Part shown: piece after piece, positions 9,691-55,251 of the stretch
How positions within the stretch are numbered: the first letter of the stretch is position 1
How the letters are laid out: each line of letters starts with the position of its first letter
Source of the DNA: Clostridia bacterium
Lineage (GTDB): Bacteria; Bacillota; Clostridia; RGIG6154
NCBI GenBank assembly: GCA_045660065.1
Contig: JAZRDC010000100.1
Span: 294 to 64,293, forward strand
Direction: 5' to 3'
Length of the DNA stretch: 64,000 bases
Position numbers and translations under genes: made by a program
The notes under the pieces: generated by a model
The model's input: only the letters and a program-made list of their open reading frames with translations
Database searches by the model: none
What the model was told of the DNA's origin: nothing

Positions 9691-10245
9691 TTATTCATCT
9701 GAACAAATTATTTCACTGAGCATTTTAAAAATATTTGCAGAGTTTGCAACCTGCATTATAATGTCGTTAATTCTTTCAGGAGCACCATTTTCTTTGATTA
9801 AAATATTGTTTGCAACGGTAGAAATGTTTTCTGAAATATATTCGTATGATTTCCTCTGATTTTTTACAAATGAAATATAAATGTTCTTTACTTCATCTTC
9901 GCTTAAATCCAAAGGAATAATATTTTGGATTGTAGACATAGTTAAAGTCTGTTTTAAAATACATACTATAATCAGATAAGCAAGGTGGACTCTCGAATAT
10001 TTCTTTCTGTCTGGAGGGGGCATAATTTTAAGTTTAACATAGTTGTTTATCATTGATTGTGTTATACCTTTTTCGTCCTTTACCGCCTCAGAATATATAC
10101 TTAAATAACTGTTTAACAGTTTTATAACCTGATCCATATATAATTCAAAAACAGGAAGTTCGTCCCAATCGGGGAGTTTAAAATCTGCAATTTTTTTGTT
10201 CCAATAGTTAAATATGTCTGAAAAATTCTCTTTATTATATTTCAT
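9691..10245 (-). CDS. hypothetical protein (DUF1836-like)
   Basis: ATG at c10245 (MKYNKENF) preceded by AGAGGTG RBS. Confidence 0.5.
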   Translation of the reverse strand: MKYNKENFSDIFNYWNKKIADFKLPDWDELPVFELYMDQVIKLLNSYLSIYSEAVKDEKGITQSMINNYVKLKIMPPPDRKKYSRVHLAYLIIVCILKQTLTMSTIQNIIPLDLSEDEVKNIYISFVKNQRKSYEYISENISTVANNILIKENGAPERINDIIMQVANSANIFKMLSEIICSDE

Positions 10246-10372
10246 TTTATACACCTCTTTGTTATGATAACATACATTTTTGATAAAATCAAGCACTTGA
10301 CAAAATTAGTCGAATATGTTAACATAGTATTAAATACTATGTAATATAGTAAATTATAACGAGGTGTAAAAA

Positions 10373-11956
10373 ATGACAGATTATAAACGTTTTAGTAATT
10401 TAGCAGAAATTATTGAAAATTCAGCAAAGAAATTCGGATCAAGACCGGCTTTTACTTTAAAAGACAGAACTGTTACATATAGTGATCTTTACAATGATAT
10501 CAGAGCCATTTCAAGATTGTTTGCACAAAAAGGTTATGTAGGCAAAAGAGTTGCCTTAATAGGCAAAAACTGTTATGAATGGGTGCTCATTCATCTTTCT
10601 ACTATGTATACAGGCAGTGTATTGGTTCCGTTGGATAAAGGTCTTAAAGACTTTGAAATCCAGAGCCAGATTAAAAGAAGTAAGACAGATGTGTTGTTTG
10701 TTGTAGGCAGTATGAAATTGCCTGAACTTGATATTGCAATAGAAAACGATGTTGAAAAGTTTATTGCTGATGCAAAACTTCTTCCTGTAAGTGAAAATGA
10801 AAAGTACGAAGTTGACAGTTATAAAATGAGTATGCTTCTTTTTACATCAGGTACAACAGATAATTCAAAAGCGGTAATGCTTTCACAGTTTAATGTTGCG
10901 TCAAACCTTTATTCTCTCTGCCTTCACGAGCATTTTGTTCCTGAAGATGTAAGTTTGGTGCTTTTGCCACTTCATCATACATTCGGAATGGTTGCACTTT
11001 TACTTTTCTTAAGTCTTGGTATGAACAATGCGTTTTGTGATGGTCTTAAAATTACAAAATCTATTGAAGAATATAATACAAATATCCTGGTTGGTGTGCC
11101 GTTGATTGCAGATGCAATTTACAAAACTGCACAGAGAAAACTTAAAGCAATGAAACTTGATAAAGTGATCAACACTTTGATTAAAATCAGCCGTGCATTT
11201 TTGAAAGTGAAAATTGATTTAAGAAAACCATTTTTTGCAAAAATCAGAAATCAGATTGGTAAACCGCTTGATTTTGTTATCATTGGCGGTGCTGCACTCA
11301 GCCCTGAAGTTGAACAGTGGTTTAATGATATTGGTATTTACACAGTTCAGGGGTATGGATTAACAGAATGTTCACCTGTTTTATGTGCAGAAAATCCTGA
11401 AAATATGAGACTTGGTTCTGTTGGAACTGCAATGCCTGGAATTGATATGAAAATTTCAGAGCCAGATGCAGAAGGTATTGGTGAAATCATCGCAAAAGGC
11501 GATAATATAATGCTTGGATATTACGAAAATGAAGAACTTACCAACGAAGTTTTAAAAGACGGTTATTTCTACACAGGTGATTTAGGCTATATCGATGATG
11601 ATGGCTTTATCTGGATTACAGGCAGAAAGAAAAATATGATTGTTCTTAAAAACGGAAAAAATGTTTTCCCTGAAGAAATTGAAGAACTTATCGGTAAGTA
11701 TGAATTTATCAAAGAATGTATGGTTTACGGAGAGACAGGAGATGACGGCGATGTTATTTGTGCATACATTGTTTGTGATAAAGAAAAAAATCCTGATAAA
11801 ACCGATGCAGATTTCAAAGCAATGGTAGACGACGCTATCAGCAAAGTAAACGAAAAACTTATTTCTTACAAAAAAATCAGAAAAATTGTTATTTCTGAAA
11901 AATTGCTTGAAAGAACTTCAACAATGAAAATTAAAAGAAATCAAAAAGTGAATTAA
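10373..11956 (+). CDS. AMP-dependent synthetase/ligase (long-chain fatty acid-CoA ligase-like)
   Basis: LFTSGTTDNSKAVMLSQ AMP-binding motif, YTGDLGYIDDDGF..., ...ITGRKK. Confidence 0.8.
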   Translation: MTDYKRFSNLAEIIENSAKKFGSRPAFTLKDRTVTYSDLYNDIRAISRLFAQKGYVGKRVALIGKNCYEWVLIHLSTMYTGSVLVPLDKGLKDFEIQSQIKRSKTDVLFVVGSMKLPELDIAIENDVEKFIADAKLLPVSENEKYEVDSYKMSMLLFTSGTTDNSKAVMLSQFNVASNLYSLCLHEHFVPEDVSLVLLPLHHTFGMVALLLFLSLGMNNAFCDGLKITKSIEEYNTNILVGVPLIADAIYKTAQRKLKAMKLDKVINTLIKISRAFLKVKIDLRKPFFAKIRNQIGKPLDFVIIGGAALSPEVEQWFNDIGIYTVQGYGLTECSPVLCAENPENMRLGSVGTAMPGIDMKISEPDAEGIGEIIAKGDNIMLGYYENEELTNEVLKDGYFYTGDLGYIDDDGFIWITGRKKNMIVLKNGKNVFPEEIEELIGKYEFIKECMVYGETGDDGDVICAYIVCDKEKNPDKTDADFKAMVDDAISKVNEKLISYKKIRKIVISEKLLERTSTMKIKRNQKVN

Positions 11957-16708: not shown

Positions 16709-18490
16709 ATGAAAAAAATGTATTCAACAAAGAGATCGTTGATTACAAGCGTAATTGCTCTTATGCTCTGTTTCTCAATGCTCTTAGGCACAACATTTGC
16801 GTGGTTCACAGATTCAGTAACAAGCGCAAATAACATTATCAAGTCTGGTAACTTAGATGTTGCAATGTACTGGGCAGACGGTAAAGCTGATCCAGATACA
16901 ACATCATGGACAGATGCATCAACAGGTGAAATTTTCAACTACGACAAATGGGAACCAGGTTATGCTGAAGTTCGTCATATCAAAATTGCAAACGAAGGCA
17001 CACTTGCACTTAAATATAAAGTGTTAATCGCTGCAACAGGTGTTGTTACTGATCTTGCAGATGTAATTGATGTTTACTACGCAGATCCTGCAGTTCAGGT
17101 TGCAGATCGTTCTCAGCTTACTGATGCAAATAAACTTGGTACTCTTACAGAAGTGCTTTCAAAACTTGGTGAAACAGGTTATGGTGAACTTGCAGCAGAT
17201 GAAGCGCACACAATTACTCTTGCATTTAAAATGCAGGAATCAGCAGGCAACGAATATATGAACAAATCAATCGGTTCAAAATTTGCTGTTAAAATCGTAG
17301 CAACACAGTTAGAAGCTGAAATGGACAGTTTTGATGCAACATATGATGCAGAAGCTGAGTATCCTAATGTAAATAGTGTAAACGTTCCTGCAAACGCAAC
17401 AACTTCTTCAACACTTAAAATGGACGAAGTTAAAGTTACAATTCCAACTACAGCAGGTGAAGGTGCTTACGAACTACAGGTAGTTAAAACAGGTGTTGAA
17501 ACAGATGAAAATGAAAAAACAACAGTTTCATACGACATTAATGTCCTTAAAGATGGTGTAAAGGTATCAGGCATTGAAATTCCTGTAGAAATCAATGTTG
17601 GCAAATATCTTGAAATCATATCACTTAAGCACAACGGAAATGATATAGCAAAAGCAGATTATAACTATGATAAAAAAACAGGTATTATTAAGTTCACAAC
17701 AACTTCATTCAGCCCATTTGCAGTTGAATATGTACCTGGAAAAATAACAAGCGGTCTTTATGATGAAGATCCTACTCAGTATGACAAAACATTGTTAGAA
17801 CCAAATTCAGAATACATTTCAACTGAAATTAAAGTAGGCGGAGTATCAAAATGGAACGTTAGTGAACGTGCTACAACTGTTTTTGTAGAACCTTCACAGT
17901 CTGGAAAACTTTATAGTATAATCAGTGGTTTACAGAACAATGAACATTCAACAGTTTACCTCTATCCTGGTACATATAATGAAGGTACAACAATCAATGT
18001 TACATCATCAATGGATATCATAGGTCTTGGTGATAAAGATAGCGTTAAAGTTGTTAAAACATCATCATCAAGTAGCAACCGCCATCTTTTCAATGTAAGT
18101 GGCACAAAAGCAGATTATATCGAAGTAACACTTAGAAATATGTATTTAGATGCTACAGCAACCACAACAAATAATAAAGATAATGCAGCAGTTCAGTCTA
18201 TCAGAAAATCTAAAGTAAAATGCTATGACCTTACAATTGTTAAAGGTACAGGCTGGGATGCAGTTGCTTTTTATGTAAATGGAAATAATGCAGTTGATGG
18301 TGTGAAATATCCTGCATATCTTTATGTTGAAAACTGTGCACTTAATACAACCAAAACATTTGGTGTAGTTACAACAAGTGGAAGTTACAAATTCTACCAC
18401 AACAATCTTACATATAATGGAACAGCTTATACAAACAATAGCGGTTCAATTTTAAACCAGTCAATGTCAGCAGACGATTGGGAATGGTAA
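16709..18490 (+). CDS. TasA/camelysin-like (SipW-cognate signal peptide) N-domain protein with C-terminal right-handed beta-helix-like extension, paralog 1
   Basis: MKKMYSTKRSLITSVIALMLCFSMLLGTTFAWFTDSVTSANNIIKSGNLDV aligns with TasA/CalY GGTWAAFND..SGTLDL; C-terminus Gly/Asn/Thr-rich beta-helix repeats. Confidence 0.7.
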   Translation: MKKMYSTKRSLITSVIALMLCFSMLLGTTFAWFTDSVTSANNIIKSGNLDVAMYWADGKADPDTTSWTDASTGEIFNYDKWEPGYAEVRHIKIANEGTLALKYKVLIAATGVVTDLADVIDVYYADPAVQVADRSQLTDANKLGTLTEVLSKLGETGYGELAADEAHTITLAFKMQESAGNEYMNKSIGSKFAVKIVATQLEAEMDSFDATYDAEAEYPNVNSVNVPANATTSSTLKMDEVKVTIPTTAGEGAYELQVVKTGVETDENEKTTVSYDINVLKDGVKVSGIEIPVEINVGKYLEIISLKHNGNDIAKADYNYDKKTGIIKFTTTSFSPFAVEYVPGKITSGLYDEDPTQYDKTLLEPNSEYISTEIKVGGVSKWNVSERATTVFVEPSQSGKLYSIISGLQNNEHSTVYLYPGTYNEGTTINVTSSMDIIGLGDKDSVKVVKTSSSSSNRHLFNVSGTKADYIEVTLRNMYLDATATTTNNKDNAAVQSIRKSKVKCYDLTIVKGTGWDAVAFYVNGNNAVDGVKYPAYLYVENCALNTTKTFGVVTTSGSYKFYHNNLTYNGTAYTNNSGSILNQSMSADDWEW

Positions 18491-18538
18491 TTCGGTAAAT
18501 CCCAATTTATTTAAATAACAAATAAGGAGTAGATAATA

Positions 18539-19852
18539 ATGACAAAATCTTATTCAACAAAAAGATCGTTGATCACAAGCGTAATTGCTCTTATGCTTTG
18601 CTTTTCAATGCTCTTAGGCACAACATTTGCGTGGTTCACAGATTCAGTAACAAGCGCAAATAACATCATTAAATCAGGTAACCTTGATATTGAACTCAGA
18701 TATAAAAACGATGAAGTTGCCGATTGGACTGAAGTTAAGGACGATACCAATGTTTTCAAAAAAGAAACACTTTGGGAACCTGGTCATGTTGAAGTTGTAA
18801 AACTCAAAATCACAAACGCAGGTACACTTGCACTTAAATATCAGCTCGGTGTAAATGTGGTAAACGAAGTAACATCTATTAATGTTAACAATGGTACACT
18901 TCAACTTTCAGAACATATTAAATATGGTATTTTAGAAGGCGATTTAAATCTTTCACGCAGTGAGGCAATTGCGGCAGTAGAAGCAACTGCAAAAGCGTTA
19001 AAAGAACCATACACTTCAGAAGATATCGACCTTCTTCCAAAAACTGACACAAACTCAGATTTTGAAGACATCGTAACATTGGTAGTTTATATGCCTGAAA
19101 CTGTAGGCAACGAAGCAAACTACAAATTGGGAGAAGCAGTTCCAACAATCGACCTTGGTATTAACCTCTTTGCAACACAGTACGCTTCAGAAGCAGACTC
19201 TTTCGATGAAAAATATGACGAAAAAGCTCTTTATGAAAAAGGCAAACCTGTAGCAAAAACAAAGGAACTTACCAAAACAGCAACATTATCAGTTGAAGAC
19301 GATAATGGTAATACTGTAGAAATTTTAGGCAAAGATTTTGCAATTACTACTAACACTGCTGGAAGTTTCGGAGCAAACCTTGGAGCAATTAATCTTGATG
19401 CAGCATATCAATTTGAGCCAACATTATCTTTAGAAGAAGCATTACGTTCAGAATATGAACAGTGGCACGCAGATTTTATTGTTTCAGTTGATAAAGATAT
19501 TCCTGCAAACAGTATTGCTTTAGCCGGTTACTACAATTTATGGTGTGAAGGGTTCAACAATAATAATTGGGTAGCTCTTACTAATGAGTATGATGCAATT
19601 ATGGCAAATCAGCCAATCCGTCTTGTTGACTATATGGGACAGGGTTCATTGACTGTTGCTCTCAAGGATCTTGCAGAGTATGGCAATGATGGTATCGGAT
19701 TCCTTTGTGGTGTAATGGAATTGAATGATGCTCTTCCTACAAATACAAAATTCACAGTTGAACTTCGTCTTTACGAAGCAACAGACAATTCAAGGGCTTC
19801 AGAAACAGGCGAATATATGACTATAGGAACATATAGTTATCTTTTTAAATAA
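18539..19852 (+). CDS. TasA/camelysin-like N-domain protein, paralog 2 (distinct C-terminal domain)
   Basis: near-identical first 45 aa to paralog 1; co-transcribed (48-bp gap, no terminator). Confidence 0.7.
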   Translation: MTKSYSTKRSLITSVIALMLCFSMLLGTTFAWFTDSVTSANNIIKSGNLDIELRYKNDEVADWTEVKDDTNVFKKETLWEPGHVEVVKLKITNAGTLALKYQLGVNVVNEVTSINVNNGTLQLSEHIKYGILEGDLNLSRSEAIAAVEATAKALKEPYTSEDIDLLPKTDTNSDFEDIVTLVVYMPETVGNEANYKLGEAVPTIDLGINLFATQYASEADSFDEKYDEKALYEKGKPVAKTKELTKTATLSVEDDNGNTVEILGKDFAITTNTAGSFGANLGAINLDAAYQFEPTLSLEEALRSEYEQWHADFIVSVDKDIPANSIALAGYYNLWCEGFNNNNWVALTNEYDAIMANQPIRLVDYMGQGSLTVALKDLAEYGNDGIGFLCGVMELNDALPTNTKFTVELRLYEATDNSRASETGEYMTIGTYSYLFK

Positions 19853-19863
19853 TTTATTATATG

Positions 19864-19924
19864 CCCGTCCTGTCCATTCGGACAGGCGGCAATCAAAAGG
19901 TACGAATTTAATTTGTACCTTTTG
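19864..19924 (+). terminator. conserved two-hairpin module: hairpin1 (CCTGTCC-ATTC-GGACAGG) + GGCGGCAATCAAA + rho-independent terminator
   Basis: repeated with compensatory base changes at 21449-21512. Confidence 0.65.
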
Positions 19925-19942
19925 ACTGCTGAATAGATGCAG

Positions 19943-19957
19943 ACAGTGAAAGACTGT
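19943..19957. promoter_or_regulatory. operator variant ACAGTGAAAGACTGT upstream of paralog 3
   Basis: same flanks GCAGACAGT...ACTGTTTACATATATTTGTCAT. Confidence 0.5.
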
Positions 19958-20003
19958 TTACATATATTTGTCATAAAAAATATTACATTAGGAGGAAAAT
20001 CAA

Positions 20004-21434
20004 ATGACAAAATCTTATTCAACTAAGAGATCATTGATTACAAGCGTAATTGCTCTTATGCTTTGTTTCTCAATGCTTTTAGGCACAACATTTGCGTGGT
20101 TCACAGATTCAGTAACAAGCGCAAATAACATTATCAAGTCTGGTAACTTAGATGTTGCAATGTACTGGGCAGACGGTAAAGTTGATCCAACTACAACATC
20201 ATGGACAGACGCATCAACAGGTGCAATTTTTGACTATGCTAATTGGGAACCAGGTTATGTACAGGTTAGACACATCAAAATTGCAAATGAAGGCTCACTT
20301 GCTCTTAAATACCAGTTAGCAATTGCTGCTAATGGAGAAGTATCTGAACTTGCAAATGTAATCGATGTTTACTATGCAGATCCAGCTGTTAAAGTTGCTA
20401 ATCGTGCTCAGCTTACAGAAGACATGAAACTCGGTACTCTTACTGAAGTTCTTGCTAACCTTGGCGCAACAGGTTATGGTGAACTCCAGAAAGATGAAGC
20501 TCACACAGTTACACTTGCATTCAAGATGCAGGAATCAGCAGGCAACGAATATCAGAACTTAGCAATCGGCTCAGATTTCGCAGTTAAACTTGTTGCAACA
20601 CAGCTCACATCTGAAGAAGACAGCTTTGACGATCAGTATGACAAAGATGCTGAATATGATTATCTCGTTGCAACACAGGACGAACTTGAAGCAGCAATCA
20701 AGAGCGCTCCAGTAGGTGATGAACCAACTGTTATTGCTTTAGGAACTGATATAAAAGAAACTCTTACAATTGCGCAGGAACCTGGTGTTAAATTAGTGAT
20801 CGATGGTAACGGTAATTCAGCTTTGGAAGGTATTATTGTAGATGGTAAATCAGCAGCATATTCGGATGCAGGATTAGTTATTAAGGATTTTGTTTTTGAT
20901 GCCAACAGCAAAATTGATGAAGAAGCTTGCATTAACCTTGGCGATGGCACCAATGGAACTCGTTACATTAGCAACTTAACAGTGGAAAACTGTACTTTTG
21001 ATGTTGCAGGAAAAGTTGCGGTTAAATCTTATCAAAATGGGGACAAAAACATCACAATCAAAGGATGTACTGTATCAGATAAAATGCATTCATTAGTTCA
21101 GGTTAATAACGTAAATAACTTGGTTGTAGAAGATTGTAAAATTTTCTCAAAGAATGGTATCAATGCAAACCAGAGCCCGATTGTTACAGTAAAAGGCTGC
21201 ACAGCTGATGTAACAGGATACGCGGTTCGTTTTGGTGCAACTTCAGGTGCAACTGGTGTAGCAGAAACATATCTCATTGAAAACTGCAACTTGAAATCTG
21301 CATGTGCAGAATCAGACGATGCAGTAGTTGTTCTCCGTGCTACAACTGAAGGAGCAACACTTACTCTCAAAAACACAACTCTCACAGGAACACGTGATAT
21401 TATTAACCTCGGAAACGCAACAATTGTTAGATAA
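20004..21434 (+). CDS. TasA/camelysin-like N-domain protein with C-terminal pectate-lyase-like beta-helix domain, paralog 3
   Basis: conserved N-terminus; C-terminus NCTF/GCTV/DCKI/NCNL repeat pattern typical of parallel beta-helix. Confidence 0.7.
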   Translation: MTKSYSTKRSLITSVIALMLCFSMLLGTTFAWFTDSVTSANNIIKSGNLDVAMYWADGKVDPTTTSWTDASTGAIFDYANWEPGYVQVRHIKIANEGSLALKYQLAIAANGEVSELANVIDVYYADPAVKVANRAQLTEDMKLGTLTEVLANLGATGYGELQKDEAHTVTLAFKMQESAGNEYQNLAIGSDFAVKLVATQLTSEEDSFDDQYDKDAEYDYLVATQDELEAAIKSAPVGDEPTVIALGTDIKETLTIAQEPGVKLVIDGNGNSALEGIIVDGKSAAYSDAGLVIKDFVFDANSKIDEEACINLGDGTNGTRYISNLTVENCTFDVAGKVAVKSYQNGDKNITIKGCTVSDKMHSLVQVNNVNNLVVEDCKIFSKNGINANQSPIVTVKGCTADVTGYAVRFGATSGATGVAETYLIENCNLKSACAESDDAVVVLRATTEGATLTLKNTTLTGTRDIINLGNATIVR

Positions 21435-21448
21435 TAATTTCATACAAG

Positions 21449-21512
21449 CCCGACCTATCCCTTCGGGGATAGGCGGCAATCAAAGGGCACGAATTAGTTT
21501 GTGTCCTTTTAT
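21449..21512 (+). terminator. second copy of two-hairpin/terminator module
   Basis: CCTATCCC-TTC-GGGGATAGG + GGCGGCAATCAAA + GGGCACGAATTAGTTTGTGTCCTTTT. Confidence 0.65.
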
Positions 21513-21528
21513 TGCCGAATAGGTGCAG

Positions 21529-21543
21529 ACAGTTTAAAACTGT
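21529..21543. promoter_or_regulatory. palindromic operator ACAGTTTAAAACTGT upstream of paralog 4
   Basis: identical to 16649-16663 copy. Confidence 0.55.
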
Positions 21544-21587
21544 TTACATATTTGTCATTATAATATTACATAAGGAGGAAAAACGAA

Positions 21588-22994
21588 ATGACAAAAGTTT
21601 ATTCAACTAAGAGATCATTAATTACAAGCGTAATCGCTCTTATGCTTTGTTTTTCAATGCTTCTCGGCACAACATTTGCGTGGTTCACAGATTCAGTAAC
21701 AAGCGCAAATAACATTATCAAGTCTGGTAACTTAGATGTTGAAATGTACTGGGCAGACGGTACAGCAGCAGTTCCAACTGTAGACGCAGGTTGGACAGAC
21801 GCATCATCAGGTCCAATCTTCAAGAATGATTTATGGGAACCAGGTTATGTAGAAGTTCGTCACATTAAAATTGCAAACGAAGGCACACTTGCTCTTAAAT
21901 ATCAGTTGGCAATTGCTGCTAACGGAGAAGTATCTAAGCTTGCTGATGTAATCGATGTTTACTATGTAGATCCTGCTACTCAGGTTGCAGATCGTACTCA
22001 GCTTCCAGCTGACAAGAAACTCGGTACTCTTACTCAAGTTCTCGCAAATCTTGCTACAACAGCTAGCGGTAACCTCGAAGCAGGTAATGCTCACACTGTT
22101 ACTCTTGCTCTTAAAATGCAGGAATCAGCAGGCAACGAATATCAGGATTTAGCAATCGGTACTGATTTCTCTGTTAAACTCTTTGCAACACAGTTAGATG
22201 CTGAAGAAGATTCATTCGGTAAAGATTATGACGCAGATTTAGACGCTTCACAAAATGGTATAGCACGCGTTACTTCTAATGGTTCAACAGTAATGTATTA
22301 TAGCGAAGAAAGTGGTTATGCAGGCAAAGTAAGATTAACTGCACTTCCTGAAAATCTTGGTAGCGAATATGTTGTACCTGCAGAAGTTAACGATTTAGGT
22401 GGTGTACTCGCAGGTAAAACTCTTGACAAATTGACCATTCATGCAAATGTTCAGAATGCATATAAATCTCTTCAGGGTACAACCGTTGATACTGTTGTTG
22501 TTGAAAGTGGCATGACAACAATTCCTGATCGTATGTTCTACCGCGCAACTGTTGATAGTGTAGTTATTCCATCAACAGTTAAAAATGTTGTAGATAGCGC
22601 TTTCCAGGAATCCATTATCAAAGAAATTAAAGTTCCTGCTTCTGTTGAATATTTCGGGGTACAGGCATTTGGTTCTTCTAAAATTGAAACTGTTACTTTT
22701 GAAGGTAACACAAGAATTCAGAACAAAGCTTTCCGTGGTTGTGCTAATCTCAGAACAGTTTACATAAACGGTGATGATATTACTTTTGAAAACACAACTG
22801 GTCAGGCTAACTGCTGGTTCTGTAACAGCGAATCAAACAATCCTGGTACAAGTGATATTACATTTTATGTTAAAAATGAAACTGTAGCAGCAAAAGTTAA
22901 AGCGGCTATGGGTGCTGAAGTTCAAAGTGAAGCAACAAGCAAAGTTAAGATTTATGTAAATAACGTACCATACTTTGTTGGTACAAAACTGTAA
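21588..22994 (+). CDS. TasA/camelysin-like N-domain protein with C-terminal BspA-type leucine-rich-repeat domain, paralog 4
   Basis: conserved N-terminus; C-terminus ...VVIPSTVKNVVDSAFQES.IKEIKVPASVEYFGVQAFGSSKIETVTFEGNTRIQNKAFRGCANLRTVYI LRR_5-like repeats. Confidence 0.7.
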   Translation: MTKVYSTKRSLITSVIALMLCFSMLLGTTFAWFTDSVTSANNIIKSGNLDVEMYWADGTAAVPTVDAGWTDASSGPIFKNDLWEPGYVEVRHIKIANEGTLALKYQLAIAANGEVSKLADVIDVYYVDPATQVADRTQLPADKKLGTLTQVLANLATTASGNLEAGNAHTVTLALKMQESAGNEYQDLAIGTDFSVKLFATQLDAEEDSFGKDYDADLDASQNGIARVTSNGSTVMYYSEESGYAGKVRLTALPENLGSEYVVPAEVNDLGGVLAGKTLDKLTIHANVQNAYKSLQGTTVDTVVVESGMTTIPDRMFYRATVDSVVIPSTVKNVVDSAFQESIIKEIKVPASVEYFGVQAFGSSKIETVTFEGNTRIQNKAFRGCANLRTVYINGDDITFENTTGQANCWFCNSESNNPGTSDITFYVKNETVAAKVKAAMGAEVQSEATSKVKIYVNNVPYFVGTKL

Positions 22995-23115: not shown

Positions 23116-23760
23116 ATGAACAGAATAGGAAAGCAGACGGTAGTTTTAAATAATTTGCCAAGAATTATAGAAACTGCTTCGGTAGTTGGACAAAAAGAGA
23201 ACGAGGGTAATCTCGCAGGGTGCTTTGATTATGTTATAAGTGACGGAAGATTTGGTGAAAAATCATGGGAAAAGGCAGAAAGCAAAATGCAGAAAAAAGC
23301 CGTTGAAATTCTCTTGAAAAAATCGGGGAAAACAAAAGAAGAAATAGATTTTATAGCAGGCGGCGACCTTTTAAATCAATGTATGGGTACAAGTTTTGGT
23401 TTGGCGGATTTTAATATCCCGTTTTTAGGTCTTTACGGTGCGTGTTCCACAATGGCAGAAAGCCTTTGCATTGCATCAATGACAGTAGATGGTGCATATT
23501 CAAAAAATACCATCGCAGTAACCTCCAGTCATTTTTGCTCAAGTGAAAGGCAGTTCCGTTTTCCCTTGGAATATGGTGGTCAGCGCACACCCACATCACA
23601 GTGGACGGTAACAGGTTCAGGAGCCGCTTTAGTGTCAGACAAAGGCTCAGATATCGCCATAACACACATAACTCCTGGCAAAATTGTAGATATGGGAATA
23701 ACTGACGCCAACAATATGGGTGCAGCAATGGCCCCTGTAAGTGTTAAACTAACACCATAA
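23116..23760 (+). CDS. spoVAD: stage V sporulation protein AD, N-terminal ~205 codons (gene split after ...MAP at 23736; frame then runs 8 codons into the element to a TAA)
   Basis: GKQTVVLNN...FLGLYGACSTMAESL...SSHFCSSERQFRFPLEYGGQRTPTSQWTVTGSGAA...DMGITDANNMGAAMAP collinear with SpoVAD residues 1-~205. Confidence 0.85.
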   Translation: MNRIGKQTVVLNNLPRIIETASVVGQKENEGNLAGCFDYVISDGRFGEKSWEKAESKMQKKAVEILLKKSGKTKEEIDFIAGGDLLNQCMGTSFGLADFNIPFLGLYGACSTMAESLCIASMTVDGAYSKNTIAVTSSHFCSSERQFRFPLEYGGQRTPTSQWTVTGSGAALVSDKGSDIAITHITPGKIVDMGITDANNMGAAMAPVSVKLTP

Positions 23761-24003
23761 GGTGATATGCTAAATCTCTACAATTTACGCAAATTTCCTA
23801 CTTTTTCCCGAAGGATGAGACACCCCAATTCGCTATTTTTTGACAAAAGGAGAGATGATTAGAAAATACATATAAAATAATGGTACAACCATTTTGAAAA
23901 TTTTTTTGAGTTTGTGGTTTCTTGGACTAAAATAGGTATAATGCAATCAGAAAGTGTAAATAACAATTATTGGAAATCTTGGTTGACGGGAAAGGAAAAT
24001 CCT

Positions 24004-24210
24004 ATGGTGAATATAGTTAAAGCCGAAGAAATTGCAGATTTAAAAATTCTTACAATTGACCAAACAAAATCGCAACCTGAACGCTTAACGCAATTTTTTA
24101 AGGATGTGAAAAATCCATATATGGTAAGAGTAGGCGATACATTGGTACGAATAGAATTTATCGGTGGAAGAAATTTTTCAGATGCTTTAACTGTGGCTTT
24201 TTCTGTGTAA
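24004..24210 (+). CDS. small hypothetical protein upstream of recombinase (candidate accessory/directionality factor)
   Basis: 68 aa MVNIVKAEEIADLKIL...; position immediately 5' of recombinase inside element; function not recognisable. Confidence 0.35.
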   Translation: MVNIVKAEEIADLKILTIDQTKSQPERLTQFFKDVKNPYMVRVGDTLVRIEFIGGRNFSDALTVAFSV

Positions 24211-24318: not shown

Positions 24319-26001
24319 ATGACAAATACTAAATATGCTATGTATGTAGAGCAGCCTCCGGTATTCAAGGTAATATGGAAAGCTGCTCTTTATATTAGGC
24401 TCTCAAAAGACGATGGGGATAAGTGTGAAAGTAATTCGGTAACTTCTCAACGCGAGATATTGATGGAATATCTGAAACAACACCCTGACATCGAGTTGTA
24501 TGATATTTATGTTGATGACGGATGGTCAGGCACAAACTTCAACAGACCTGATTTTTCCCGAATGATGGAAGATGTTTATGCAGGTAATGTAAACACTATT
24601 ATTGTAAAAGATTTGTCCAGATTTGGAAGAAATTATACAGATAGCGGATACTACCTTGAAAATGTGTTTGTAAGACTGAATGTGAGATTTATTGCACTTA
24701 ACAACGGCGTTGATACTGCATCTAATAATATGAACGCCGCAACTCAATGTATTTCGGTGGGGGTTACAAATGTTATCAACGAAAGTGTAGCCGCTACAAC
24801 TTCTGTCAATGTTCGGGCAACACTTAATGTAAACCGCACCCAGGGCAAATTTATTGGTTCTTTTCCCACTTACGGATATTTGAAAGACCCAAACGACCAC
24901 CATAAACTTATTGTTGACGAGGAAACTGCTCCTGTTGTACGCTCAATTTTTGAGCGGTTTATTTCAGGGAAAAGTATAATTGGCATTGCAAAGGAACTTA
25001 ATGAAGAAGGAATTCCTAATCCTTCAATGTATAAAAAACTTAAAGGCTTTAATTACAGACACCCGGTAGGGAAAAGTAATGACGGCTTATGGCCTGACAG
25101 TTCTGTAAGAAGAATTCTTCAAAATCAGATGTATATTGGCAATATGGTACAGGGCAAGAATACCACGATAAGTTACAAAATCAAACAATGCAGAGCCATT
25201 CCAAAGGAAGATTGGATTATCGTTGAGAATACTCACGAGGCTATTGTGAGTAAAGAGATGTTTGAAAAAGCACAATCCTTGTTTAACAAAAGCATTCGCA
25301 CTGCACCGCAGAAAAAAGAAGTTGATTTGTTTTCAGGATTTGTAAAATGTGCAGATTGCCACAGATTGATGCATAAGAAAACAAATGTTCACTCTTATGG
25401 TACCTATCATTATTACCGTTGTTCTACTGCACGAAAAATGAAAAAAAGTGCCTGTGGTAATCATACTATAAGAATTGATAAACTTGAAGAGACGGTTATT
25501 ACAGTCATTCAAAATATGATAGATGTGGCAATTGATATGAATGTTTTGATTGAAAAGATAAATTCAAGCAGTATGCGCAAGAAAGAATCAACGCATCTTA
25601 TGAAAAATCTGCAGACTTTAATTTCCGAAAGAGAAAAATGTATGAGCCTGATGACAGGCTTATATCCCGACTACAAAAACGGGATTATAAGTCAGGCGGA
25701 ATATCAGAGGTTAAAGCAAAACTTAAACGAAAAAATTGATATTCTTGATAAAAATATCAACAATTTAAGCGAAACTGCAAAAAACTATGAAGACGGCGTA
25801 AATAACGAAAACAAGTTTATTACCAACTTTAAAAAGTACGGAAAATTAGAGTGTCTTAACAGAAATATCCTGACAGAACTTGTTGAAGAGATTTTAGTGC
25901 ATGAAAACAAAATGATTACCATCAAATTCAAATTTGAAGATGCTTATAAAGATGCAATGCACTATATAAAAATGAATAAGGACGTAATAAAGACCGCATA
26001 A
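24319..26001 (+). CDS. large serine recombinase (resolvase N-domain + recombinase domain + zinc ribbon/coiled coil), SpoIVCA/CisA-like
   Basis: ALYIRLSKDDGD...NSVTSQREIL catalytic N-domain; ...CADCHRLMHKK...YYYRCSTARKMKKSACGNH zinc ribbon; 560 aa; RBS GGAGGT. Confidence 0.85.
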   Translation: MTNTKYAMYVEQPPVFKVIWKAALYIRLSKDDGDKCESNSVTSQREILMEYLKQHPDIELYDIYVDDGWSGTNFNRPDFSRMMEDVYAGNVNTIIVKDLSRFGRNYTDSGYYLENVFVRLNVRFIALNNGVDTASNNMNAATQCISVGVTNVINESVAATTSVNVRATLNVNRTQGKFIGSFPTYGYLKDPNDHHKLIVDEETAPVVRSIFERFISGKSIIGIAKELNEEGIPNPSMYKKLKGFNYRHPVGKSNDGLWPDSSVRRILQNQMYIGNMVQGKNTTISYKIKQCRAIPKEDWIIVENTHEAIVSKEMFEKAQSLFNKSIRTAPQKKEVDLFSGFVKCADCHRLMHKKTNVHSYGTYHYYRCSTARKMKKSACGNHTIRIDKLEETVITVIQNMIDVAIDMNVLIEKINSSSMRKKESTHLMKNLQTLISEREKCMSLMTGLYPDYKNGIISQAEYQRLKQNLNEKIDILDKNINNLSETAKNYEDGVNNENKFITNFKKYGKLECLNRNILTELVEEILVHENKMITIKFKFEDAYKDAMHYIKMNKDVIKTA

Positions 26002-26458
26002 TTTTTAGTAGTGCAAAAAATATAAAAATGTTTGTTTGAGCATTGATTTTTTGTTAAATATGTGATAAAATTAATACATTCACACAAAGTGTTGGTTATG
26101 TCACAACTGCTTTTAGCAAGGCATAATCGGTGGAAAGGGAATGGGGTGAGAATCCCCTGCGATAACTGTCGGTGTATGCACCAAATGTTTTTATATCCGT
26201 TATCGAAAGATAGTCATTGGGAAACTGAGAAGGCAGGATATAAAAATGCAGACTTTTTGTCTATATGGTGTAAGCCACAAGACCTGCTTTGATGTTATCT
26301 CGTAGGTGCGTCTATGCATAGAGGTAGCTTTTTTGTCTGCAAAAATTAATGCATACAAATTGTGAACCATCACAGGAAAACTCAGCTGTGGTAATTTTTC
26401 AAAACGAAAAATTGCCGCAGTTTTTTGTTTTATGCGGCAAAAAGAGAGGATGGTAAAA

Positions 26459-28672
26459 ATGAAAACAAAAAAATTATTATCAATCATTTTATGTATGGTG
26501 ATTGTATTGGGGGCATCATTATTTCCTGTGAGTGCAGATAGTAACACAATTGTGCACAACATCGCAGAAAAGTATTCAGGAGAAAGTCTTGTAGATGATC
26601 CTAATATGATGTGGTTTGTTGCAGATCTTTCTGTGTATGAACAGGTTTATCAGCAAAATTCAATCACACCGGTTATCAGGCAAAATTGCCTTGATAAAAT
26701 AATTGCAGAGGCAGATAGTTCAGTGTATCCGTCTGCAATGGCAAAATCAATTATAGCATTAAGAGCGTTGGGATATGATGCTAAAAATGTTATTACTGCT
26801 GATTTGACAGCAATTGACGTTGTGAAAAAACTTACAGATATGGTCGATAGCGGTGAGGCAAGTGTTCTTAATGAATACACTTTGCCATATGTAATTTTAG
26901 CGTTGCAACAAGGCAATAATTACGCAACTGTTGAACAGATGGACTATCTGATTGCAAAGGCAGTTGAAACAAAATCTGCATGGCAGGACACCACCTGGGG
27001 AACAGATGCCGCAACACCTATGCTTTTAGCATTAGCACCTTATTACAACACCAATATACAGGTGAAAAATGCTATTGATGAAACTTTACCTATTATAACT
27101 TCATTTCAAGATGAAGCAGGACTTATCAGTAACGCTGCATCTCACGGACTTGCTATGGCGGCATTTTCTGCACTTGGAATAGATAATCATAGCATAATAA
27201 AAAATGGCAATGATATGTTTGACGGACTGATGACAGAGATAACACCTGAAAATGACGGATTTGAACCAAGTTATAATTCTTTTTCAACAGAGCAGGGATT
27301 CAGAGGACTTTTATCAACAATGTTGCCTGCAGGTACAAGAATTTATGATTTTGCAGATAATCCGTATAATCAGGCAACAGCAACATGGGCTGAATTTGCA
27401 CCTGTAACATTTGAGGTTACACCGCAGGACGCAATTGTAACAATAACAGATGCTACACCGGTTAAAAACAACAAATTTGATTTAAATGCAGGAACTTATA
27501 ATTATTCTGTTGTGCATTCTGTATATCAGCCTGTAAGCGGTGTTATTGTTATTACTCCTGAAGAAGCAGAAAATCATATTCCTAAAACAGTTAATGTTGT
27601 TTTGCAACAATACCCGCAATCTTCAGGTGGTGTGAGTAGCGATATTAAAGTGAAGGTTAAAGTTATGTCACACAATCAAAATGAATGCAATAATTCATTT
27701 ACTTATAAAAATAATTCTAATGCGTACCAATCATTGGTAAGTGAAACTGTTACTTTGAAAAAAGGGGACAGCGTTTTAGATGCGTTAAAAAAAGCACTTA
27801 ATAAGAATAATATTGTATACTCTGAAAACAACGGATATGTGTCAGCAATAAATAATCAGAAAGAATTTGACCACGGAAGTAATTCAGGTTGGATGTTCAC
27901 TGTTGACGGACAGCATTCCACAAAAGGAAGCTTAGAAACCAAATTGTCAAACGGTCAGGAAGTTGTTTGGTTTTATACAGATGACTATACTGCAGAAAGA
28001 GGATCGGAAAGCATAAGACCATCTTCTTCAGGTACATCTAAGAAGGAAAAAGCCTGGGGTCTTGAAGGAAAAAATCCTGATATCAAAAAAAGAGATGTAG
28101 AGATTAAAGGCAAAACATTTGGTGATATTAAAAATCATAAAAATAAGACCGCCATTGAGTCTTTGGCTGAAAGAAAAATTATTAATGGCAAAAGTGAAAC
28201 ACTTTTTGAGCCTGACGGGCTTATGACAAGAAGTGAATTTGCAACAATTATTGTAAATGGATTGTGTCTGCCTGTTAAAGACGGAAAAGAATTTAAAGAT
28301 GTTTTAAAAACCGATTGGTTTTTTGATTATATTGAAACCGCCTATGCCTATGGTATTGTAAAAGGGGAGTCTGACACAGAGTTTAACCCAAACGGAACAA
28401 TCACAAGAGAAGAAGCGGTTGTTATGCTCGCAAGAGCGGCAAAATTGTGCGGAATGGATACTTCGGTAAGTTCTGATGGTGTTCGCAATGTTTTGGCACA
28501 ATTTACTGATTACAAAACTGTATCTGACTGGGCGCAATGTTCACTTGCATTTTGTTACGGCAAAAAAATATTATCAAACGAAGTGTTGGAAATTAAACCG
28601 TCAGAGTGTGTTACAAGAGCGGAAATAGCGGAAATACTTTATAATATGCTTTGTCTTGCTAAACTTATATAA
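26459..28672 (+). CDS. secreted cell-surface protein: alpha/alpha-toroid N-region + DUF4430 domain + three C-terminal SLH domains (transcobalamin-like architecture)
   Basis: signal peptide MKTKKLLSIILCMVIVLGASLFPVSA; DUF4430-like ...DSVLDALKKALNKNNIVYSENNGYVSAIN...GSNSGWMFTVDGQ...; three repeats FxD(V/I)..DWF..Y...A...GIVKG SLH motifs. Confidence 0.65.
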   Translation: MKTKKLLSIILCMVIVLGASLFPVSADSNTIVHNIAEKYSGESLVDDPNMMWFVADLSVYEQVYQQNSITPVIRQNCLDKIIAEADSSVYPSAMAKSIIALRALGYDAKNVITADLTAIDVVKKLTDMVDSGEASVLNEYTLPYVILALQQGNNYATVEQMDYLIAKAVETKSAWQDTTWGTDAATPMLLALAPYYNTNIQVKNAIDETLPIITSFQDEAGLISNAASHGLAMAAFSALGIDNHSIIKNGNDMFDGLMTEITPENDGFEPSYNSFSTEQGFRGLLSTMLPAGTRIYDFADNPYNQATATWAEFAPVTFEVTPQDAIVTITDATPVKNNKFDLNAGTYNYSVVHSVYQPVSGVIVITPEEAENHIPKTVNVVLQQYPQSSGGVSSDIKVKVKVMSHNQNECNNSFTYKNNSNAYQSLVSETVTLKKGDSVLDALKKALNKNNIVYSENNGYVSAINNQKEFDHGSNSGWMFTVDGQHSTKGSLETKLSNGQEVVWFYTDDYTAERGSESIRPSSSGTSKKEKAWGLEGKNPDIKKRDVEIKGKTFGDIKNHKNKTAIESLAERKIINGKSETLFEPDGLMTRSEFATIIVNGLCLPVKDGKEFKDVLKTDWFFDYIETAYAYGIVKGESDTEFNPNGTITREEAVVMLARAAKLCGMDTSVSSDGVRNVLAQFTDYKTVSDWAQCSLAFCYGKKILSNEVLEIKPSECVTRAEIAEILYNMLCLAKLI

Positions 28673-28682
28673 GGGTAATTGA

Positions 28683-29339
28683 ATGAAAAAATATAAAAAT
28701 AAAATAATTTCACGTGCCATCATTTTCATCATATCTGTTGTTGCTTTTTTAAGTGGTTGCGGTGAGAACACTATATCTGAAAATGCAGTATCTTACAACG
28801 CACCTAAAGAAACTAAAGTGCAAATAAAAGAGGAAAAAACATCAGAAGTAAATTCTTCAGAAATAAATCAAGATGTAAAACCGACAGAAGTTAAAAAAGA
28901 AAGCACAGAAAAACATGAAAAAGCAACAGTTGATAATTCTGAAGCAACTACTGAATCAAATGGAGAATTTACTTGCATTTTATCTGTAAGATGTGATACA
29001 ATTTTAAATAATATGTCGCGCTTTGATAGTGCTAAAGTGGATATTGTGCCAGGGGACGGTGTAATATTTGCACCAGAATCTGTTGTGTTTTATGAAGGCG
29101 AAAGTGTATTCAATGTGCTTGCTCGTGAAATGAAGCGTAACAAAATACATTTAGAGTTTGAAATGACACCACTTTACGAAACTGCGTATATAAAAGGGAT
29201 TGCCAATATTTATGAATTTGATTGCGGAGAACTTTCGGGGTGGTTATACAAGGTAAACAACGAAAGTCCGGGTGTTGGATGCTCTCTTTATAAGTTGAAA
29301 GATGGCGATGTAGTTGAATGGATATACACTTGCGGTTAA
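28683..29339 (+). CDS. DUF4430-domain lipoprotein
   Basis: lipobox LSGCG; C-terminal ...VFNVLAREMKRNKIHLEF...ELSGWLYKVNNESPGVGCSLYKLKDGDVVEW DUF4430 pattern. Confidence 0.6.
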   Translation: MKKYKNKIISRAIIFIISVVAFLSGCGENTISENAVSYNAPKETKVQIKEEKTSEVNSSEINQDVKPTEVKKESTEKHEKATVDNSEATTESNGEFTCILSVRCDTILNNMSRFDSAKVDIVPGDGVIFAPESVVFYEGESVFNVLAREMKRNKIHLEFEMTPLYETAYIKGIANIYEFDCGELSGWLYKVNNESPGVGCSLYKLKDGDVVEWIYTCG

Positions 29340-29365
29340 AACTATGTAGTACTTAGGAGAAAAAG

Positions 29366-53469: not shown

Positions 53470-53584
53470 GAAACCGAATGATTTGATGCCAATGTAGATT
53501 ATTCGGATTTTTATATAGTTTAAAAATAATTTATTTTAGCTATTGAAATATGTTCTGAAAAGTGATACAATATATTTAAACTTA

Positions 53585-53740
53585 ATAAACGGGAGCTTGT
53601 ATACAGGCTGAGAGGAAGGTGCGACCTTCGACCGAGAACCTGATTTGGATAATGCCAACGTAGGGATGCCTGATAAAAGTGTCAGGAGGAACAAAGAAGT
53701 TTTAGGAAGTTACCAAATCGGTAACTTCCTTTTAATTTTT
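53585..53740 (+). promoter_or_regulatory. TPP (THI-box) riboswitch with terminator-type expression platform
   Basis: GGCTGAGAGG...CCTTCGACCGAGAACCTGATTTGGATAATGCCAACGTAGGGAT THI-element consensus; followed by GGAAGTTACCAAATCGGTAACTTCCTTTT hairpin. Confidence 0.85.
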
Positions 53741-53798: not shown

Positions 53799-54620
53799 AT
53801 GTTAGGAAATTGTCTTGAAAATGTAAGGAGAAAAACACCACTTGTGCATAATATTACAAATTATGTAACGGTTAATGATGTAGCAAACGCTTTGCTGGCC
53901 TGCGGTGGCAGCCCGATTATGTCAGATGAGCCTGATGATGTGGCAGATATTACTGCTATTTGTGGAGGTCTTAATATTAATATTGGGACTTTAAATCAAA
54001 AGAGTATCGAAGGGATGTTTATCGCAGGTGCAAAAGCTAAGGAGTTGAAGCATATAGTTTTACTTGATCCTGTGGGGGCAGGAGCAAGTAAACTGCGTAC
54101 TGAAACGGCAATAAAACTTATGGATAATATTGAATTTGATGTTATTCGTGGAAATGTTTCAGAAATTAAAACTTTAGCACTTGGCTTCGGAACAACTAAA
54201 GGAGTAGATGCCGATGTTGCTGACACAGTAACAGAAGAAAATCTTGAGGAGATGATTGCCTTTGCTAAGAATTTTTCAAAAAAAACAAATGCCGTTATTG
54301 CGATTACAGGAGCTATCGACCTTGTAGCAGATAGTGAAAAATGTTATATAATTCGTAATGGCAGACCGGAAATGAGCAAAATTACAGGTACAGGCTGTCA
54401 ACTATCCGGTATTGCGGTGGCTTTCGCTGTAGCAAATCCTGATGATAAAACAATAGCCGTTGCAGCAGCGGTTTGCACTATGGGACTTGCAGGTGAAATA
54501 GGTTATTCAAATCTAAAGCCAGGCGAAGGGAATTCTACATTGCGAAATCGCATTATAGATGCTATTTGTAATATGGATTCAGAAACTTTGAATAAAGGAG
54601 CAAAATATGAAGTGCGATAA
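53799..54620 (+). CDS. thiM: hydroxyethylthiazole kinase
   Basis: PLVHNITNYVTVNDVANALLACGGSPIM ThiM signature. Confidence 0.85.
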   Translation: MLGNCLENVRRKTPLVHNITNYVTVNDVANALLACGGSPIMSDEPDDVADITAICGGLNINIGTLNQKSIEGMFIAGAKAKELKHIVLLDPVGAGASKLRTETAIKLMDNIEFDVIRGNVSEIKTLALGFGTTKGVDADVADTVTEENLEEMIAFAKNFSKKTNAVIAITGAIDLVADSEKCYIIRNGRPEMSKITGTGCQLSGIAVAFAVANPDDKTIAVAAAVCTMGLAGEIGYSNLKPGEGNSTLRNRIIDAICNMDSETLNKGAKYEVR

Positions 54621-55251
54621 AAAGGATTTGCTTTTATATGCTGTTACTGACCGTACTTGGCTTGGAAATATGACTCTTTACGAACAAGTGAAGGAAACTC
54701 TCAAAGGGGGAGCAACTTTTATTCAACTTCGTGAAAAGGAGTTGGATGAGGAAAACTTTTTCAAAGAAGCCTTGGAAATAAAGCAACTCTGTAAAGAGTA
54801 TAATGTTCCTTTTGTAGTTAATGATAATGTCGATATTGCAGTAAAGGTGAAGGCAGATGGAATACATATAGGTCAAAAAGATATGGAAGCAGGGTATGTA
54901 CGGTCTGTTATTGGGGAAGACAGAATTCTTGGTGTGTCTGCACAAACAGTAGAACAAGCTATTCTTGCAGAAAAGATGGGCGCTGATTATTTGGGTGTCG
55001 GTGCTGTGTTCAGTACAGGTTCAAAAGCAGATGCAGACGATGTAAGTTTTGATACACTTAAAGCAATATGCGATGCTGTAACTATTCCCGTTGTTGCTAT
55101 CGGCGGAATTGGAGTAAATAATATTTTAGAACTGACCGGAAGCAGGATATGTGGTGTTGCAGTTATCAGTGCAATTTTTTCTGCAGAAGATATCAAATCT
55201 GCAACAAGAAAATTAAAAGAATTAGCAAAAAAGGTGGTGCCTGAACGATGA
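54607..55251 (+). CDS. thiE: thiamine-phosphate synthase
   Basis: LLYAVTD...FIQLREK...HIGQ...GVGAVFST ThiE motifs. Confidence 0.85.
   Translation: MKCDKKDLLLYAVTDRTWLGNMTLYEQVKETLKGGATFIQLREKELDEENFFKEALEIKQLCKEYNVPFVVNDNVDIAVKVKADGIHIGQKDMEAGYVRSVIGEDRILGVSAQTVEQAILAEKMGADYLGVGAVFSTGSKADADDVSFDTLKAICDAVTIPVVAIGGIGVNNILELTGSRICGVAVISAIFSAEDIKSATRKLKELAKKVVPER

Follow-up and report, generated by a model that had tools for sequence, protein, structure and literature searches.

A putative riboswitch-controlled operon for corrinoid capture and import on a recombinase element within spoVAD of a Clostridia bacterium

A putative corrinoid capture and import operon

The window analyzed here, a 64,000-nucleotide (nt) stretch from a gut Clostridia bacterium (GenBank assembly GCA_045660065.1, contig JAZRDC010000100.1, positions 294 to 64,293), carries a 9083-bp element of six co-oriented genes between the two halves of the sporulation gene spoVAD. 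Four of these genes probably (with a probability of about 75%, as judged from the sequence) constitute a self-contained operon that captures and imports corrinoids, is repressed by corrinoid, and has been captured as a cassette on the spoVAD element. The genes are co-oriented and tightly packed, and encode a transcobalamin-like surface protein of 737 amino acids (aa) (P1, 26459–28672), a 218-aa DUF4430 lipoprotein (P2, 28683–29339), the 295-aa transmembrane coupling subunit EcfT of an energy-coupling factor (ECF) transporter (P3, 29366–30253), and an 816-aa fused EcfA-EcfA'-S protein (P4, 30226–32676). They are preceded by a promoter-like site, a cobalamin riboswitch aptamer, and an intrinsic terminator. 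Coordinates refer to the window, and the features of the operon, its leader, and the surrounding element all lie on the forward strand.

An original prediction, made from the letters of the stretch without database searches, had proposed a corrinoid or other cofactor capture-and-import system at this locus. The four genes and the domains assigned to them are present where it had placed them, and the corrinoid reading is now backed by the riboswitch, by the CbrT-like S domain of P4, and by the structure matches of P1 and P2.

Regulation of the operon

As far as the sequence can tell, the leader has the standard layout of a transcriptional OFF switch. A consensus scan locates a promoter-like site (TTGATT-17-TAAAAT with a TG extension, 26043–26071) at the start of the captured cassette, and the cobalamin riboswitch aptamer (RF00174, 26070–26305) matches the full Rfam model (positions 1–189) with 44.3 bits against a gathering score of 31.5. 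The aptamer contains the B12 box AGCCACAAGACCUGC; the earlier statement that no cobalamin riboswitch was to be seen upstream is thus overturned. An intrinsic terminator, the putative expression platform of the riboswitch (26384–26432; a 17-pair hairpin followed by a T run), ends 27 nt 5' of the P1 start codon and is the single terminator found by a scan in which 0.2 were expected.

With its cobalamin riboswitch, promoter-like site, and terminator, the leader links the operon to corrinoids without recourse to protein homology. At a high intracellular corrinoid level, the aptamer would bind the corrinoid, the terminator would form, and the operon would be switched off, while scarcity of corrinoid would allow its transcription. 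At the other end of the operon, RNA folding detects a hairpin 3' of the stop codon (32693–32725; -15.6 kcal/mol, z -3.7) with a weak U run, which might act as a terminator; a strict terminator scan calls none downstream of the operon.

The CbrT-type ECF transporter

P3 has no match in Pfam or NCBIfam, and a weak Pfam match to CbiQ appears in its orthologues. A phmmer search against the Protein Data Bank (PDB) relates P3 to solved EcfT chains (5d3m_D with E 6e-13, 4hzu_T, and 4huq_T), in agreement with the EcfT gene that had been proposed ahead of the fused protein. The likely start codon of P4 is the ATG at 30226, yielding a product of 816 aa that is identical to the NCBI protein, one residue less than originally stated. 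Its two predicted ABC ATPase domains hold: TIGR04520 (ECF_ATPase_1, 363.4 bits against a cut-off of 315) and TIGR04521 (ECF_ATPase_2, 342.4 against 330) each match the chain in two stretches. The C-terminus is an ECF S-component domain, with Pfam ECF-ribofla_trS and ECF_trnsprt both above their cut-offs.

The membrane part of P4 had been described as a six-helix domain. This does not hold, as the hydropathy scan yields about eight hydrophobic segments: a Lys/Pro-rich linker and two extra transmembrane (TM) helices (aa 588–635) precede a six-helix, CbrT-like S core (aa 645–801, approximately 32158–32628) delimited by PDB matches and hydropathy. Since the extra helices are even in number, the ATPases would stay on the cytoplasmic side, and the fusion is topologically sound. 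The only significant solved relative of the S domain is CbrT (PDB ID: 6fnp_A), with E 4.5e-7 for the single sequence and E 4.1e-10 for a profile of eight orthologues (A2); the next S-component match, 4hzu_S, has E 0.007. The membrane domain therefore groups with a characterized B12 S-component and not with an unrelated permease. All sequence criteria that were applied place the transporter in the CbrT-type ECF family. Powered by EcfT and the two ATPase domains, the CbrT-like S domain would carry the ligand through the membrane; as both ATPases are joined to the S domain by the linker and the two-helix hairpin, the whole transporter would consist of two polypeptides.

The fused ATPase-ATPase-S (A-A-S) architecture had been regarded as unusual, which is true only in comparison with the textbook four-subunit ECF transporter. 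Within the subfamily of the P4 S domain it is common: the best 120 clusters of P4 at 90% identity all measure 813–894 aa and share the same domain set. An exhaustive search with the S domain retrieved 2181 representatives (50% identity) at E<=1e-3, and 64 of the best 150 have a fused size of at least 750 aa, nearly all of them (60/64) with two Walker A motifs. The idea that the fusion is rare was consequently dropped, and no paper describing it was found in the literature.

The ECF-CbrT transporter of Lactobacillus delbrueckii (PDB ID: 6FNP; Santos et al. 2018) transports cobalamin and cobinamide, and not hemin (PMC5997447). According to later papers that refer to the work (PMC6593275, PMC8123684), dedicated CbrUVT systems were predicted by Rodionov and co-workers using comparative genomics. 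The window transporter shares with ECF-CbrT a homologous S domain (E 4e-10 with the profile), EcfT, and two ECF-type ATPase domains, and with both systems a link to B12 through regulation or gene context. It differs from the L. delbrueckii transporter in being a module dedicated to one substrate, with the ATPases and the S domain in one 816-aa chain and two additional TM helices. The CbrT of L. delbrueckii is a free subunit of 182 aa working with a shared ECF module, and that system comes without extracellular binding proteins.

The transcobalamin-like surface protein

P1 starts at the ATG at 26459, with the ribosome-binding site GAGAGGA 8 nt upstream. The 737-aa product is identical to the corresponding NCBI protein; the original length of 738 aa was one residue too long, while the predicted secretion is supported by a signal peptide (aa 1–26) read from the sequence as an N-terminal hydrophobic segment with a VSA/D cleavage motif. 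The mature chain comprises an alpha6/alpha6 barrel (aa 27–291, 26537–27331) and a beta-sandwich (aa 304–381, 27368–27601), both delimited in the AlphaFold2 model, followed by a DUF4430 beta domain (aa 395–511, 27641–27991) and three S-layer homology (SLH) repeats (aa 545–737, 28091–28669). The beta-sandwich between toroid and DUF4430 is an addition to the domain list given before, whose other entries stand. DUF4430 (PF14478) is recognized by Pfam at aa 436–507 with E 2e-18 and 66.9 bits, well above the cut-off of 23.8, and SLH with E 1e-29 and 102.7 bits. The segment aa 551–726 aligns to the three-repeat SLH domain of Bacillus anthracis Sap (PDB ID: 3pyw). With its signal peptide and SLH triplet, P1 has the features of an SLH-anchored cell-wall protein.

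The model of aa 27–515, built from 63 sequences, has a mean predicted local distance difference test score (pLDDT) of 95.1 and contains both halves of a transcobalamin, i.e., an alpha6/alpha6 barrel and a DUF4430-type beta domain. In a Foldseek search against the PDB, haptocorrin, transcobalamin, and intrinsic factor account for all of the top 15 matches, whose alignments each exceed 500 columns and cover both domains (E 6e-10 to 8e-8), and the next fold class begins at E of about 5e-3. The suggested resemblance to a whole transcobalamin is thereby borne out. The model also matches the isolated beta domain of transcobalamin (5no0, 5np4), the alpha domain of intrinsic factor (2pmv_B), and a DUF4430 structure from Ruminococcus gnavus (3U7Z). 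The high root-mean-square deviation of the structural matches is due to a different domain orientation and to the inserted beta-sandwich (model residues 278–355), which resembles the transthyretin-like domain of carboxypeptidase D. Sequence searches of the PDB with P1 alone and with its profile (A1) returned SLH proteins only, and no transcobalamin, so the link could be drawn only with a structure model.

Like transcobalamin, intrinsic factor, and haptocorrin, P1 consists of an alpha6/alpha6 barrel followed by a small beta domain. Unlike these eukaryotic carriers, it has a beta-sandwich between the domains, is anchored to the wall by SLH repeats, and falls below the threshold of Pfam Cobalamin_bind (PF01122). 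The proposed target of delivery differs as well: a membrane transporter for the bacterial protein, an endocytic receptor for the eukaryotic ones. P1 would be exported and held at the cell wall by its three SLH repeats; going by the model, it might bind the corrinoid between the alpha-barrel and the DUF4430 beta domain, in the manner of transcobalamin.

A search at E<=1e-5 finds 277 relatives of P1, and many of those at 40–60% identity carry PF01122 in precomputed annotation. About 30 of the best 120 have a DUF4430 domain of their own; the others in this set contain only the alpha domain (often annotated as PF01122), sometimes CarboxypepD_reg, and SLH. In the relatives lacking DUF4430, a separate DUF4430 lipoprotein presumably supplies the beta half. 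P1 of the window is the fused form, which mimics a whole eukaryotic carrier while a separate beta lipoprotein is still kept.

The DUF4430 lipoprotein and the proposed route of the ligand

P2 has the L-S-G-C lipobox (LSGC) and a DUF4430 domain expected of the lipoprotein it had been taken for. A linker that is disordered in the AlphaFold2 model (aa 26–91, pLDDT <50) leads to the transcobalamin beta-like DUF4430 domain (aa 92–218), in which five Cys residues are invariant (alignment A3). Pfam recognizes DUF4430 with E 1e-15 and 58.0 bits (cut-off 23.8), so that P1 and P2 both pass the profile search by which the DUF4430 assignment was to be judged. The proposed relationship of P2 to the transcobalamin fold is likewise supported by structure: the top 16 Foldseek matches all cover the beta domain of transcobalamin, intrinsic factor, or haptocorrin (E 6e-4 to 4e-3). 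A phmmer search of P2 against the PDB gave no significant match. More than 3000 relatives are found at E<=1e-5.

Being tethered to the membrane, P2 could use its flexible linker of about 65 residues and this second beta domain to pass the ligand inward; alternatively, it might cap the ligand together with the alpha domain of P1. A quite improbable alternative is that the transporter imports corrinoids while P1 and P2 do not feed it, and instead hoard or sequester corrinoids at the surface or select among cobamide variants, whether to deprive competitors or to store the vitamin. The anchoring of P1 in the wall, away from the membrane, would fit such a role, and an ECF S-component itself binds its ligand with high affinity and normally needs no extracytoplasmic binding protein (PMC5997447; 10.1101/864751). 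Genes for P1-like and P2-like proteins, however, share a fixed-order operon with the transporter in every operon examined, and the long flexible linker and membrane tether of P2 suit a hand-off. Sequestration and delivery could, moreover, coexist.

Orthologous operons and the nature of the substrate

Six other distinct copies of the operon were compared with that of the window (L001, L002/L003, L004, L005–L007, L088, and L089/L090). The order of SLH protein, DUF4430 protein, EcfT, and A-A-S protein is complete in L001, L004, L005, and L089; L002 has the same order with an added gene for a CobA/BtuR corrinoid adenosyltransferase, and the L088 contig stops inside the second gene of the operon. 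A cobalamin riboswitch precedes five of the six (L001, L004, L005/L006, L088, and L089), i.e., 6/7 copies counting the window, and therefore the corrinoid link belongs to the operon family and not to the window copy alone. All six occupy unrelated, ordinary chromosomal sites, with ribosomal protein, microcompartment, ATP synthase operon, or AraC regulator neighbors, and neither a recombinase gene nor spoVAD was found beside any of them.

In L002 (6233–12676) and L003, the adenosyltransferase gene is located between the DUF4430 and EcfT genes, and the SLH protein is shorter (554 aa). The L002 operon lies directly downstream of microcompartment genes (BMC, EutN, PTAC, aldehyde dehydrogenase) and a gene for a DeoR regulator.

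The closest published system is the "ECF-like" operon lsa1836-1840 of Lactobacillus sakei (Verplaetse et al.), which encodes ECF-S, EcfAA', and EcfT together with secreted transcobalamin alpha-like and beta-like proteins, and to which heme was assigned as the substrate (10.1101/864751). In both systems, the S, A-A', and T module shares an operon with genes for exported proteins that have the two transcobalamin folds, alpha and beta. The L. sakei forms of these domains are two separate secreted proteins next to a separate S-component, and no riboswitch is mentioned in the paper; in the window, a single SLH-anchored chain unites the alpha and beta parts, contains an inserted beta-sandwich, and is accompanied by a beta-only lipoprotein, the operon is under the control of a B12 riboswitch, and it is located on a recombinase element. 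The idea of an ECF transporter combined with transcobalamin-like exported proteins is, accordingly, already published, and literature on DUF4430, bacterial transcobalamin-like proteins, and SLH domains in combination with corrinoids yielded nothing closer than this preprint.

The L. sakei system also provides the main argument for a different substrate, i.e., that the window operon imports heme or another non-corrin tetrapyrrole. The assignment of heme to the same parts list draws on mutant phenotypes and docking (10.1101/864751), and the transcobalamin fold of P1 shares only 11–14% identity with the true, eukaryotic B12 carriers. Such a substrate is nevertheless highly improbable for the window, given the cobalamin riboswitch on its operon and on 5/6 orthologues, the corrinoid adenosyltransferase gene within one orthologous operon, and an S domain nearest to CbrT, for whose transport hemin does not compete (PMC5997447); furthermore, no heme-related gene is adjacent to the operon. 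Because of the riboswitch, the adenosyltransferase gene, and the relationship to CbrT, corrinoids are far likelier than heme, which suggests that the heme assignment in L. sakei may deserve re-testing.

Several points weigh against the corrinoid operon as proposed, in addition to the L. sakei phenotypes and the low identity of P1 to the eukaryotic carriers. The substrate is deduced from regulation and homology only. P1 itself stays below the threshold of PF01122 (17 bits, E 0.003, cut-off 25), and the L002 operon has no riboswitch at threshold, even though it is the one with the adenosyltransferase gene in favor of corrinoids. The division of roles between P1 and P2 and the order of the hand-off are guesses. 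Finally, exact searches of metagenome and viral contigs for the 28–29-nt attB and attP junctions of the element described below found none; these negative results are uninformative, since the strain itself appears to be absent from the collections searched.

The element within spoVAD

The operon was originally described as cargo of a sporulation-gene intervening element, and the reconstruction of spoVAD confirms this. The 5' part of the gene, including the crossover core, occupies 23116–23737 (Pfam SpoVAD positions 1–207, 299 bits), and its open reading frame (ORF, 23116–23760) continues into the element, where it meets a stop at 23760. The 3' part occupies 32821–33206 (SpoVAD positions 201–329, 191 bits, for the ORF 32805–33206). 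The sequence CCCCTG marks the left end of the element (attL core, 23732–23737, read from the sequence) and recurs at the end of the right attachment arm (32767–32820, with the attR core at 32815–32820), which was delimited by homology to relatives. The two halves are in frame, and joining them at the 6-bp core, where NMGAAMAP meets AAVDTI, restores an intact, uninterrupted 335-aa SpoVAD. The attB junction sequence is GCAGCAATGGCCCCTGCCGCAGTAG, and in the reconstructed attP, the core is flanked by the 9-bp inverted repeat TTATGGTGT/ACACCATAA.

The ORFs of at least 80 aa in the element are a DUF6870 gene (23914–24210; Pfam, E 1e-14), the gene for a 560-aa large serine recombinase (24319–26001; Pfam Resolvase, Recombinase, and Zn_ribbon_recom), and the four operon genes. 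Matches of the recombinase to the NCBIfam models of XisF and CcrB are below cut-off. A prophage origin was set aside, as the recombinase is less than 40% identical to phage recombinases and no ORF of this size is phage-like.

A scan of species-representative genomes with the recombinase yielded 80 loci with up to 82% identity, all from metagenome-assembled genomes or isolates of Clostridia (Oscillospiraceae, Acutalibacteraceae, Eubacterium, Ruminococcus) and many from the guts of goat, deer, chicken, and rabbit. Family members (50–82% identical), together with the DUF6870 gene, lie beside a spoVAD split at the same gene position in about 45 of these 80 genomes, as detected by tblastn (family loci L008–L068, L073, and L080). 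The left arm of the window element is homologous to junctions in L059, L033, and L049, and its right arm is 82–92% identical to the stretch between recombinase and spoVAD-3' in L008–L014, L068, and L080. The DUF6870 gene immediately precedes the recombinase gene in about 50 of the 80 loci; owing to this co-occurrence, its product is a candidate directionality or accessory factor. In L049, the 5' half of spoVAD (20938–21531) lies about 9 kb downstream of the recombinase gene (10001–11608) on the same strand; this reversal of the usual order suggests tandem or rearranged elements.

P1, P2, EcfT, and the fused protein are absent from all 80 recombinase loci in tblastn searches. About 120 bp separate the end of the recombinase gene from spoVAD-3' in the closest relatives. 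Homology of the window to them stops at 26003 and resumes at 32767, and the stretch 26023–26080 matches the one upstream of the riboswitch in a chromosomal copy of the operon (L004:229–286). These breaks and this match indicate the insertion of a cassette of about 6.7 kb, promoter and riboswitch included, downstream of the recombinase stop codon and ahead of the right arm. As the operon has been captured within the element, B12 scavenging would travel, and be excised, together with it. A megablast search of the cassette against plasmids gave no match. Other sampled spoVAD elements carry cargo unlike the B12 operon, among it Fic/DOC proteins, HipA-like and Ser/Thr kinases, a GNAT acetyltransferase, a tyrosine integrase, an RNase III-like protein, beta-lactamase-like proteins, AAA_14-DUF4143, and an AraC-GyrI/Cass2 regulator (L036:11765–18943, L038:4662–5894, L068:11727–12830, and L008:147–9638).

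The element resembles skin in several respects: a sporulation gene is split, joining at short identical cores restores its ORF, and a large serine recombinase is encoded at the edge. The described cases, i.e., skin in sigK, SPbeta in spsM, and gin in gerE, interrupt genes of the mother cell, and their excision is confined to that cell, so that the spore keeps the element (PMC4191935, PMC5595907, PMC5025042). They share with the window element the edge recombinase gene, the split gene with an ORF restorable by precise excision, and variable cargo, which is non-phage in gin. The window element differs in its cargo, a nutrient-uptake operon, and in its target. According to literature on model species, spoVAD is not a mother-cell gene: in B. 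subtilis, sigma-G directs the synthesis of SpoVA proteins in the forespore, and SpoVAD belongs to the minimal import complex for dipicolinic acid (PMC9186386). No report of elements interrupting spoVAD was found in the literature. The vehicle, i.e., the operon as a clean cassette in a serine-recombinase element within spoVAD, is the new part of the present system.

This choice of target lends some weight to another interpretation, according to which the element is a dead remnant, spoVAD a pseudogene, and the operon an ordinary fixed chromosomal locus. Excision from a forespore gene (PMC9186386) would lose the element from the germ line, which makes simple inactivation an easier reading; besides, there is no spoVAC gene upstream, and exact searches of the metagenome and viral collections found neither an empty site nor a circle junction. 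Still, a remnant of this kind appears rather unlikely: the recombinase ORF is full length with all its domains, both att arms are conserved with many related elements, and the spoVAD halves are undamaged and rejoin in frame. About 45 species genomes retain both halves in intact, recognizable form next to related recombinases, which speaks for selection on a restorable gene and against mere gene death. If the element is indeed excised in the germ line, re-integration at germination, a second gene copy, or expression in a different compartment are options for its persistence.

A more far-reaching interpretation, which is doubtful as a whole, combines these possibilities. P1 would be a genuine full-length bacterial transcobalamin that forms, together with P2, a wall-to-membrane relay to the ECF importer, a riboswitch-controlled trait captured by spoVAD elements. 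As part of the same tentative scenario, restoring spoVAD would require the element to be excised from the germ-line chromosome, after which it would be lost unless it re-integrated at germination. If this were true, the life cycle would be unlike that of every described sporulation intervening element, and B12 scavenging would be a transferable, developmentally excised trait in gut Clostridia.

Neighboring features of the window

Directly upstream of spoVAD, four tandem paralogues (16709–22994; 593, 437, 476, and 468 aa) occupy the place where spoVAC would be expected; no spoVAC gene was seen beside spoVAD. Each has an N-terminal Peptidase_M73 (camelysin/TasA-like) region, and two of the four carry beta-helix or BspA-type leucine-rich repeat regions. 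Farther downstream, the ORF 34796–37678 encodes a 960-aa chain in which an alpha-amylase catalytic domain is fused to a complete 4-alpha-glucanotransferase (GH77). No B12-dependent enzyme or cob gene is encoded by the 20 flanking ORFs that were scanned (16709–22994, 33764–63981). A second vitamin-regulated locus is marked by a thiamine pyrophosphate riboswitch (53579–53683, 57.9 bits) preceding three ORFs (53799–56678), the last of which, the sole one of the three scanned, encodes a HAD hydrolase fused to a phosphomethylpyrimidine kinase.

Biological implications

Competition for corrinoids shapes gut communities. In Bacteroides, the surface B12-binding proteins BtuG and BtuH are known, and B12 transporters have been mobilized (PMC8759732). 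Both there and in the window, corrinoid capture at the surface stands (or would stand) ahead of a transporter, and riboswitch-controlled uptake loci are found on mobile elements in gut bacteria. The Bacteroides systems employ the Gram-negative outer membrane and TonB and move on a conjugative transposon, in contrast to the small serine-recombinase element described here. BtuG is a beta-propeller, a fold unrelated to those of P1 and P2.

For Gram-positive Clostridia, B12 scavenging beyond the membrane transporter is largely unknown. The locus points to a large uncharacterized family in which wall- or membrane-anchored proteins of the transcobalamin fold are combined with a CbrT-type importer under a B12 riboswitch, and which offers directly testable candidates. 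It bears on the contested substrate of the L. sakei system and on a possible bacterial origin of the eukaryotic B12 carriers. From its vehicle it is evident that small recombinase elements can move such operons as cassettes, and that a family of elements targeting a forespore gene has so far gone unreported.

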